This document shows positions 26,650 through 28,728 of a DNA stretch of 64,000 nt, in pieces. Each line of letters starts with the position of its first letter. Within the stretch, counting starts at the first letter, position 1. The notes under the pieces were generated by a model. That model searched no databases and was not told the origin of the DNA. It saw only the letters and a program-made list of their open reading frames with translations. The stretch lies in NCBI RefSeq assembly GCF_055900595.2, contig NZ_CM148325.1, one strand, 5' to 3'. Made by a program: the position numbers and the translations under genes.

Positions 26650-26671
26650 GCTGTCAGTTCGTAAGTCAGAA

Positions 26672-26700
26672 AGCCGCCGACATGTTCGGCGGTTTTTTTT
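26672..26700 (+). terminator. rho-independent terminator after nuoN (possibly shared with convergent yfbM)
   Basis: AGCCGCCGA-CATGT-TCGGCGGTT hairpin followed by an 8-T run at 26693-26700; lies in the 66-bp gap between convergent nuoN and yfbM. Confidence 0.7.
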
Positions 26701-26715
26701 GGTGCCCTGACCCCA

Positions 26716-27219
26716 TCACCCAACAATAACCGTCAGCGCATGATTCCCCTGTCGCAGCATACGTCGATACGCACTAATCAGCTTTTCCATATCCAGCATG
26801 ATCGAAGCAAAGAGTTGCCCCTCTAACTCTTCTGAAAAAGTCACACCAGGGTAAATCTCCATTTCATTGAGTCGTTTAATGGAAAACTGTTTACGCAGCT
26901 CACTTCGATCCAGTGATTCCAGGCGATCGATTGTCGCGGCTAACTCCTGATTCCAGGTCAATCCCAGGAATCCATCTATGCCATCTTCGAGGCTGTGTTC
27001 ACCAAGCACGGCACGACTCAGCGGATCATTCTTCGCGGGATCAAAAGCAGAGGTGCCTGTCAGCCCAAAGTGTAAAAAATCCCAGCGTTTATCAATATCC
27101 AGTCGGCGTAATCCTGAAAGCGTGTCATGTATATTATCCATCAAAGGTTTTTGAGTAGACTCAAGAAGTTGGTTAATCTTTTCTGAGTCAATTTCTGCAA
27201 AATAGCCAATCATTCCCAT
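26716..27219 (-). CDS. yfbM: DUF1877-family protein YfbM
   Basis: 167 aa ORF MGMIGYFAEIDSEKINQLLESTQKPLMDNIHDTLSGLRRLDIDKRWDF... matches recalled YfbM length and sequence. Confidence 0.85.
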   Translation of the reverse strand: MGMIGYFAEIDSEKINQLLESTQKPLMDNIHDTLSGLRRLDIDKRWDFLHFGLTGTSAFDPAKNDPLSRAVLGEHSLEDGIDGFLGLTWNQELAATIDRLESLDRSELRKQFSIKRLNEMEIYPGVTFSEELEGQLFASIMLDMEKLISAYRRMLRQGNHALTVIVG

Positions 27220-27321
27220 TTTATTTTCCTCCGTTGAATTTCATGTTTCGCATCTTAAAACAGACGAGGGAAAATAAAATGTACATGTCGCTTTTTCTGG
27301 ACCCGCCTCGAGAAATTTTTA

Positions 27322-28294
27322 TTATTTACTGTTGTATAACAAAGTTATAACCCCATCCACTACCTGAGCCATTTTCTGATAATTCAATCTGTCTGCGGTA
27401 TCACCGGGCAAGTGGTATTGTTTATTACGATAAAAAGCGGTGTCGGTAATCATTACGGCGGGAATATCGTGTTGCCAATAATTAAGGTGATCAGAGAAAT
27501 CAATACCGGGAATAAACCCTGGGGCATTCATAGAATAAACAGATAAATCCTGAGATGACAACAATGCCGCTTTTAGCTGACGAACGGCGTTGATATCCTG
27601 CATTCTGCCGACCACGGCAATAAAGTCTCCCCGATCGGGATAAAGCTAGGACATTGCCGGGTAAGGATAATCCTGGCTTCCAGGCGCAGAGTCGTAATAG
27701 CCAATCATCTCCAGAGAAATCATTAACTGTACTGGGCGATTAAGCGAAGCTGCATGTACCGCGCTCCCCATTTCATTGCTACGAAAGAAGGGCGGTTCTT
27801 CCGACGCATAGGCGACCAGCTGCACGCCTGTTTTCGGCGCTTGCTGCTGTAACAAACGTGCCAGTTCAAGTAATCCTGCTACGCCGCTGGCGTTATCATC
27901 CGCGCCAGGCGTATAGGTTAATTGATCGTTTTCAAAACTGCTGGCAGAGTCATAGTGCGCACCAATAATAATCAGCGGTCCATTGGCAAGACCATAATCA
28001 GCTACAATATTTTTGTAGGGGCCATCCGTAATGGGGACGTCCTGCGCGGTAACTCTGGCACCGCTACTGATAAAGACCTCTTTTATATACTCTGCGGACC
28101 TTTTCAGATTATCAATATTGTCGGCACTACGTGGATGCACAGTTTGTGTAAGATAACGAACTGTTTTTTCTAATTGCTCAGGACTTGCGTGTCGGGGCGT
28201 TGGCGGTAATGCATTGACCCAGGGTTGATAAAAAATAATAAAAGGAAGTGATAGTAGTAATGATATAAAACAAAGAGGTGTTATTTTTTTTCAT
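27322..28294 (-). pseudogene. yfbL: yfbL (M28-family peptidase homologue) disrupted by a 1-nt homopolymer insertion near the start and an in-frame TAG
   Basis: ATG at 28294 is followed by an 8-A run (28284-28291) and that frame stops after 38 codons (TGA 28178-28180). The frame offset by one is open and reads KKITPLCFISLLLSLPFIIFYQPWVNALPP... (signal-peptide-like), then the M28 peptidase body (ORF-track segment 27646..28140), then an in-frame TAG at 27646-27648, then continues in the same frame to TAA at 27322. Removing one A and reading through the TAG gives exactly 323 codons. Confidence 0.8.
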
Positions 28295-28728
28295 ATGTAA
28301 ATTATCAATAAAGGGCGTTATTTCATTATTATTTTAATGAGTTATGAGCGTTTATTTTATTACGGTTGGTAGTAATATACAAAAAGTATTTTTTCAGTGG
28401 GTTCGCTATTTTAAAAAGGAATTCATATGAGAAATAAAAAATAATTATGTTATTTATTGGTAGATTGAATTGACAGGGGGCAGAAATCTGAGGGTAAGAA
28501 AAGTCAGCAACTACAATCCACTACATCAACAGACCAGCAATCGCGTGCCGCGATACGCTGGAAATACCCGTAGATTGAACTGGCGGATGGTGTGACTGAC
28601 ATCGGTCAGTGATGACTTTTTAGCAAACTATGTTCGATCAGTCAGCATATTTGCTGACTGGTCGAATTGACTAACAATGATGTTAACTTACTCTTTTCCT
28701 GATGATCTATTTTTGGGTTGTGAGTGTT

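Follow-up and report, generated by a model that had tools for sequence, protein, structure and literature searches.

The interval between nuoN and rbn in a 64-kb stretch of DNA (64,000 nucleotides of NCBI RefSeq assembly GCF_055900595.2, contig NZ_CM148325.1; hereafter the window, meaning the whole stretch) is very probably one of the common structural haplotypes at a small variable region of the Escherichia coli chromosome that is already well known, and not a strain-specific oddity. In this haplotype the accessory gene yfbK has been lost from between yfbL and elaD, leaving remnants in place, and the site between nuoN and yfbM, where strain K-12 carries yfbP, yfbO and yfbN (yfbNOP), is empty, which is most likely its ancestral state. 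Gene-content polymorphism at this locus is already known, and what we describe is ordinary accessory-genome variation and no new kind of system. A preliminary description of the window had stated the K-12 gene order; the annotated record of W3110 (nuoN-yfbP-yfbO-yfbN-yfbM-yfbL-yfbK-elaD-rbn-elaA-elaB-menF) bears it out, and this order differs from the window's. The same description took the window not to come from a K-12 background, and the identities to W3110 agree, with the flanking core genes at 96-97% (97.1% for nuoL-N, 96.0% for elaD-menD) and yfbM-yfbL at 91.5%. Its view of the cluster as contracted relative to K-12 holds for yfbK, whose remnants are in place and which outgroups retain, but probably not for yfbNOP, for which K-12 represents an expanded minority (17% of genomes).

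Remnants of yfbK between yfbL and elaD

The yfbL start codon (28292-28294, minus strand) and the elaD open reading frame (ORF; 28729-29895, minus strand) are separated by 434 bp (28295-28728) that had been described as an AT-rich non-coding gap. Its length, checked against the ORF map and the raw sequence as was the 66-bp nuoN-yfbM spacer, is correct, and so is the low G+C (GC) fraction (0.353, with 0.346 in elaD and 0.514 across the whole window), but the gap is made up in part of yfbK remnants and of 46 bp of frameshifted elaD tail. Both tblastn and alignment recovered the remnants in place, and the interval is a dead yfbK, from which two internal deletions took out about 1.32 kb and about 0.21 kb. 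By blastn, window positions 28552 and 28573 correspond to positions 7848 and 9405 of the K-12 locus, and 1,556 bp of K-12 yfbK are missing. The surviving pieces (Table 1) were delimited in a MAFFT alignment of the window with three further yfbK-less genomes (R32_14_1F, O157:H7 AC-3 and 2017C-4173W12) and two that carry the gene (W3110 and WP4-S18-ESBL-09). The deletion junctions are exactly the same in all four yfbK-less genomes, and the remnant keeps its position between yfbL and elaD with conserved flanks; these identical junctions suggest that the deletion arose once, long ago.

No long direct repeat was seen at the yfbK deletion junctions. A 10-bp direct repeat (gtagattgaa, at 28461 and 28570) was considered as a deletion substrate and rejected, as it is missing from the equivalent positions in K-12 and is thus a coincidence of derived sequence. 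A second MAFFT run placed the internal island at K-12 locus 9308-9330, and the placement at 9172-9189 was preferred on its agreement of 17/18 nucleotides and 6/6 residues.

Four outgroup loci, obtained by scanning GTDB species representatives with YfbM and annotated with K-12 proteins and blastn, bear on the direction of change. Their layouts are rbn-yfbK-yfbL-yfbM in E. albertii NBRC 107761, where the contig ends; rbn-yfbK-[yfbL remnant]-yfbM-nuoN in E. whittamii; rbn-yfbK-yfbL-yfbM-yfbN in Escherichia sp. MOD1-EC7003; and rbn-[yfbK remnant, with a different junction]-yfbL-yfbM-nuoN in SCPM-O-B-8794, which is labelled E. coli and yet is only about 87-89% identical to K-12 and to the window across rbn-menF, and was treated as non-coli. 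Full-length yfbK is thus present in three of the four loci. Since the remnants are in place and the gene is present in outgroups, its absence from the window is a true loss, and yfbK is ancestral. The layouts point to rbn-yfbK-yfbL-yfbM-nuoN as the ancestral Escherichia order and, because none of the four loci has elaD, the low-GC elaD is an insertion in E. coli between rbn and yfbK. Horizontal acquisition is already proposed for the ElaD enzyme family in PMC1847702. The yfbK deletion of SCPM-O-B-8794 is an independent one that left a different, 124-bp 3' remnant, although no more than about 13 bp separate its left junction from that of E. coli (reverse complement ~9820-9835 compared with window 28539-28552). 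This closeness could reflect a deletion hotspot or a shared first event.

Table 1. Features of the nuoN-rbn interval, in window coordinates.
Feature	Positions	Strand	Details and basis
nuoN, last gene of the nuo operon, intact, 485 residues	25192..26649	+	ORF; 99.8% amino acid identity to K-12 NuoN
Hairpin followed by T-run, intrinsic terminator common to convergent nuoN and yfbM	26668..26700	+	RNA folding
Empty yfbNOP site, 17 bp	26698..26714		K-12 instead has a 2,561-bp segment (GC 0.40) with yfbP, yfbO, yfbN; blastn break points
yfbM (DUF1877), intact, 167 residues	26716..27219	-	ORF; 98.8% amino acid identity to K-12
yfbL (M28 metallopeptidase) pseudogene, 973 bp versus 972	27322..28294	-	Alignment with five other alleles
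yfbL/yfbK divergent intergenic region, 132 bp, GC 0.25	28295..28426		Alignment, composition
yfbK 5' stub, 126 bp	28427..28552	+	K-12 yfbK nucleotides 1-132; stop at codon 6; lipoprotein signal peptide disrupted
Internal yfbK island, 19 bp	28553..28571	+	YfbK residues 486-491 (IRWKYP); 17/18 nucleotides (MAFFT), 6/6 residues (tblastn)
yfbK 3' stub, 41 bp	28572..28612	+	YfbK residues 564-575 and original TGA (28610-28612); tblastn, 11/12 residues
yfbK/elaD convergent intergenic region, 70 bp	28613..28682		Inverted repeat ~28634-28663 (hairpin); conserved in K-12 and other genomes
Former last 15 codons of elaD, 46 bp, now out of frame	28683..28728	-
elaD (ElaD/SseL CE-clan deubiquitinase), GC 0.35, including the out-of-frame former tail	28683..29895	-
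rbn (RNase BN), intact, 305 residues; right-hand core flank of the variable interval	30083..31000	-	ORF; 98.4% amino acid identity to K-12

The nuoN-yfbM junction and the frequency of each state

According to the ORF map and the raw sequence, nuoN ends with TAA at 26647-26649 and the convergent yfbM has its stop codon at 26716-26718, leaving a spacer of 66 bp (26650-26715). By blastn, window positions 26697 and 26715 correspond to positions 3439 and 6001 of the K-12 locus, where the 2,561-bp segment stands in place of 17 bp. The spacer contains a terminator that folds at -19.4 kcal/mol (z = -3.9, with 0 of 200 shuffles as good) and whose sequence is the same in K-12 up to the T-run; a promoter and terminator scan, in which counts were not above those of shuffles, missed this nuo terminator, later confirmed by folding. 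A tblastn search of the whole window with K-12 YfbK, YfbN, YfbO and YfbP (E <= 10) matched only the yfbK remnants in place, and a local rearrangement was rejected. The absence of yfbK, yfbN, yfbO and yfbP claimed for the window is accordingly upheld, with no intact copy of any of them in its 64 kb and no remnant of yfbN, yfbO or yfbP there, the 26650..26715 spacer included.

The same nuoN-yfbM junction, with identical break points and 17-bp filler, is shared by 78% of E. coli, by E. whittamii and by SCPM-O-B-8794. Because it is found with the same break points in these two other species, the empty site is most likely ancestral. The classical signs of a genomic island are lacking, with no tRNA gene in 20000-36000 and only yfbP, yfbO and yfbN, without an integrase, in the K-12 insert, and no target-site duplication is visible at the yfbNOP junctions. 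A variant of the yfbNOP islet does exist outside E. coli: in MOD1-EC7003 a divergent yfbN (reverse complement 1-1097) adjoins yfbM, with 86.5% nucleotide identity to K-12 and 93.5% amino acid identity over residues 115-238. About 438 bp absent from K-12 accompany this divergent yfbN.

An Rfam scan of 26000-31200 (E <= 1) returned three sub-threshold chance matches (ryfA, Fluoride with 16.1 bits against 34, and a eukaryotic long non-coding RNA) and no known RNA gene in the gaps. The ryfA match (26545-26700; 17.5 bits against a gathering score of 80, E = 0.28) overlaps the 3' end of nuoN and the terminator and is most likely due to chance.

We counted each state in 5,426 complete RefSeq E. coli genomes. 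The direct nuoN-yfbM junction of the window is present in 4,214 (78%), and the K-12 yfbNOP segment, at 80% coverage or more, in 946 (17%). The internal 1,556 bp of yfbK were found in 2,513 genomes (46%), and the yfbK deletion junction, as one unbroken match to a 351-bp query, in 2,578 (47.5%), including O157:H7. The middle of yfbL, the part missing in O157:H7, is retained in 3,296 genomes (61%), and elaD in 4,189 (77%). The configuration of the window is thus roughly the commonest state, or one of the commonest, in the species, and K-12, given its yfbNOP insert, is an atypical reference at this locus. At least seven structural haplotypes of nuoN-rbn were seen in complete E. coli genomes: the K-12 type (yfbNOP, yfbK and elaD); the WP4 type (yfbK and elaD, without yfbNOP); the type of the window and 2017C (yfbM, yfbL, deleted yfbK and elaD); the O157 type (yfbK deleted and yfbL also deleted); the NCTC11151 type (yfbK without elaD); the EC12 type (yfbK and most of elaD gone); and the MLI104K2 type, which is largely replaced and contains a transposase fragment. 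This diversity, together with the repeated independent inactivation of yfbL and the presence of elaD in 77% of genomes, supports the earlier characterization of nuoN-rbn as a variable, decaying accessory region.

Lesions in yfbL and elaD and reshuffling of alleles

The window has an eighth A in the poly-A tract after the yfbL ATG, where five other alleles have seven (T-run 28284-28291), and this +1 slip is accompanied by a TGG to TAG nonsense change at 27646-27648 (codon 216); a substitution at 28099 is the third yfbL difference from R32_14_1F. The uninterrupted 323-residue M28 frame is consequently absent, split into ORFs of 97 and 164 residues. In elaD, the loss of 1 bp from the A-run at 28731/2 brings in a TAA at 28729-28731, and the product therefore has 388 residues where full-length alleles have 403-404, the last 15 being lost. 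A second 1-bp deletion, at 28693 in the out-of-frame tail, is seen only in the window, and this run length could be a sequencing error. The 388-residue translation retains the N- and C-terminal domains of ElaD/SseL with the SQSCGAF cysteine motif and the GGHW histidine motif, and is 88.6% identical to K-12 ElaD over residues 1-394; Pfam PF22103, PF22102 and PF02902 are recorded on the 387-residue ElaD of the near-identical assembly GCA_016588115.1. The catalytic part of ElaD is probably still functional, and yfbM, on a gene of which from an identical lineage Pfam PF08974 is recorded, would also appear to be functional.

Independent assemblies were found by exact-sequence look-up of the window MenF. 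Two of them, GCA_016588115.1 (which matches 17.3 kb of the window at 99.983% identity) and GCA_958430605.1 (99.95%), have both the slip and the nonsense codon of yfbL as well as the elaD deletion at 28731, and the last of these is also found in GCA_027278625.1. Because they recur in independent, near-identical assemblies, these three lesions are real mutations of the lineage and not sequencing errors. Inactivation of yfbL has occurred independently in the window lineage, O157:H7 and E. whittamii.

In a sample of annotation rows, yfbL decay appears tied to yfbK loss, a pattern limited by the few independent events and by the counter-example of E. whittamii. All 18 sampled rows with yfbK list an M28 family metallopeptidase, and 15 of the 21 sampled rows without yfbK do not carry the M28 label (14 are named hypothetical protein and one zinc-binding metallopeptidase family protein); of the six other yfbK-less rows, at least one (H31, EC12) likewise shows yfbL as a pseudogene, interrupted by an internal stop. 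The totals for mid-yfbL (3,296) and yfbK (2,513) are consistent with such a tie.

The closest complete genome, R32_14_1F, isolated from a goat in Nebraska, is 99.1% identical to the window over 32 kb, and the comparison across 23300-33310 is a mosaic, with no differences over about 4 kb of nuoM-nuoN-yfbM and with divergences of 1.3% in elaD, 2.5% in rbn and 3.9% in menF; this pattern indicates a recombination boundary in or near yfbL/elaD. To the right of 28573, GCA_027278625.1 matches the window at 99.97% identity, and to the left (1-4647 of its own sequence) it carries a K-12-type allele with an intact yfbK of 575 residues, the switch falling exactly at the yfbK deletion junction. Together with the R32_14_1F mosaic, this switch leads us to conclude that the haplotypes have been reshuffled by homologous recombination through conserved flanks.

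Three side observations concern the lineage. The rbn of R32_14_1F has a 13-bp deletion (at about 7191, equivalent to window 30490-30502) and is frameshifted, and that of the window is intact. Across window 30000-54000 (rbn to yfaU, 24 kb), none of the 5,426 complete genomes reaches 99% identity, about 18 lie at 98.0-98.4%, and the next listed is at about 97.0%. The assembly collection nevertheless indexes the exact window MenF in 714 blocks, and the source would seem to belong to a divergent E. coli lineage, well represented among draft assemblies but missing from the complete-genome set.

Alleles with and without yfbK also differ beyond the deletion itself. Over a 313-bp block (28240-28552), which takes in the signal-peptide codons of yfbL, the divergent promoter region and the 5' stub of yfbK, the yfbK-deleted alleles (window, R32_14_1F, O157 and 2017C) are only about 72% identical to those with yfbK (K-12, WP4 and GCA_027278625.1, the last being 100% identical to K-12 here), whereas over the adjacent 140 bp (28100-28239) identity among these E. 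coli genomes is 94-100%. The nearest match to the yfbK-deleted class within the block, at 82.6%, is SCPM-O-B-8794. It is conceivable, though on balance we doubt it, that the yfbK-deleted haplotype represents an old class of alleles, or one introgressed from a non-coli Escherichia lineage, still present in about half of E. coli, and that yfbL then decays repeatedly on it. If true, such repeated decay on a yfbK-deleted background would fit yfbK, a vWA lipoprotein, and yfbL, a secreted M28 peptidase, acting as one functional unit.

Alternatives, proposed history and comparison with known systems

Several other explanations of the locus were weighed. That yfbK was never present, the gap being ancestral intergenic sequence and the K-12 gene an insertion, would suit an AT-rich interval without a long ORF, but we give this virtually no credence: the gap holds the start region of yfbK, an internal island of six codons and the last 12 codons with the stop, in the correct order and orientation, remnants that already refute an insertion in K-12, and full-length yfbK is present in E. 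albertii, E. whittamii and MOD1-EC7003. A simple rearrangement, with yfbK and yfbNOP intact elsewhere in the genome, is barely more than nominal as an option, even though the inspection covers only 64 kb of that genome; the window contains no copy, the yfbK remnants are still in place, and complete E. coli genomes have yfbK and yfbNOP at a median of one place per genome, at the nuoN-rbn locus wherever examined. An artefact, with a collapsed or mis-joined assembly and homopolymer errors as the source of the yfbL and elaD frameshifts, is very improbable too. All three single-base indels relative to R32_14_1F do lie in homopolymer runs, the one at 28693 occurs in none of GCA_016588115.1, GCA_027278625.1 and GCA_958430605.1, and Catic et al. 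(PMC1847702) describe sequencing slippage in an A-rich part of elaD in another strain. Nevertheless, thousands of complete genomes have the same structure, and both yfbL lesions, like the elaD deletion at 28731, are seen again in independent assemblies, on which ground homopolymer error was rejected for two of the three indels. In addition, these three, at 28284-28731, are the only single-base indels across the 64 kb aligned to R32_14_1F.

For the nuoN-yfbM end, the competing account is a true contraction at both ends, in which yfbNOP would be ancestral to E. coli and, like yfbK, deleted in the lineage of the window and most others. The divergent yfbN beside yfbM in MOD1-EC7003 speaks for it, as do 27 E. 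coli genomes whose yfbNOP matches are only 60-90% identical to K-12, so that the islet is not merely a recent gain of the K-12 clade. We consider this account unlikely, since the window has no yfbN, yfbO or yfbP remnant, the empty site has identical filler and break points in most E. coli and in two other species, and 985 of the 1,015 genomes that match yfbNOP at all are at least 99% identical to K-12, which, with a GC of 0.40, is typical of a recent insert.

Some points weigh against our interpretation of an ancestral empty site and a single loss of yfbK within a common haplotype. The direction of change at yfbNOP is unproven: the yfbN of MOD1-EC7003 implies that the islet has a greater age than the near-clonal copies of K-12 type would lead one to expect, and in some genomes the site could have been emptied secondarily. 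The E. albertii contig, ending at yfbM, is uninformative on the nuoN-yfbM junction. The single origin of the yfbK deletion is read from identical junctions and not from a phylogeny, and the states in E. coli were counted feature by feature.

The history that we propose starts from rbn-yfbK-yfbL-yfbM-nuoN, to which E. coli adds the low-GC elaD between rbn and yfbK. In a minority including K-12, the 2.56-kb low-GC yfbP-yfbO-yfbN segment separates the nuo terminator from the stop codon of yfbM, a site that is empty in the window. yfbK was destroyed by its two internal deletions, probably in a single old event and presumably by illegitimate recombination because the junctions have no long direct repeats, and the deleted allele may then have spread and been reshuffled by homologous recombination via conserved flanks. 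Later, the window lineage gained the yfbL poly-A slip and nonsense codon and the elaD A-run slip that cost its last 15 codons, point lesions that may reflect relaxed selection on dispensable genes. The yfb genes are dispensable to the point of having been deleted in genome-reduced E. coli, for which PMC10652928 lists all six.

The practical meaning is one of annotation, and beyond it the significance is little. The yfbL-elaD "gap" should be annotated as a yfbK pseudogene remnant, and yfbL, and strictly also elaD, as pseudogene or truncated in the window lineage. The nuoN-rbn locus is usable as a small structural marker for lineage typing, and it illustrates decay and recombinational reshuffling of dispensable genes beside the nuo operon.

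Among known arrangements, the yfb cluster of K-12 (MG1655/W3110, b2270-b2275) shares with the window the flanks nuoN, rbn, elaA, elaB and menF and homologous yfbM, yfbL and elaD. It differs in its intact yfbK of 575 residues and its extra 2.56-kb yfbP-yfbO-yfbN segment; the window has neither yfbP, yfbO and yfbN between nuoN and yfbM nor an intact 575-residue vWA lipoprotein gene yfbK. The haplotype of R32_14_1F and 2017C-4173W12 has the gene order of the window, the empty yfbNOP site and the two-deletion yfbK remnant, but its yfbL is intact and its elaD full length. O157:H7 has in common with the window the yfbK deletion junction, the direct nuoN-yfbM junction and a yfbL pseudogene, yet there yfbL was broken by an independent internal deletion of about 330 bp and by frameshifts, and elaD is full length. 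Lineage-dependent presence and absence of elaD, its pseudogenes and its premature termination are described in two published studies (Catic et al. 2007, PMC1847702; Wang et al. 2025, PMC12575377), the latter with 353 of 530 strains positive. As far as they were read, these studies concern elaD itself and not the states of the neighbouring yfbK, yfbL and yfbNOP, and the window fits the polymorphism they describe, its low-GC, accessory elaD being present but prematurely terminated.

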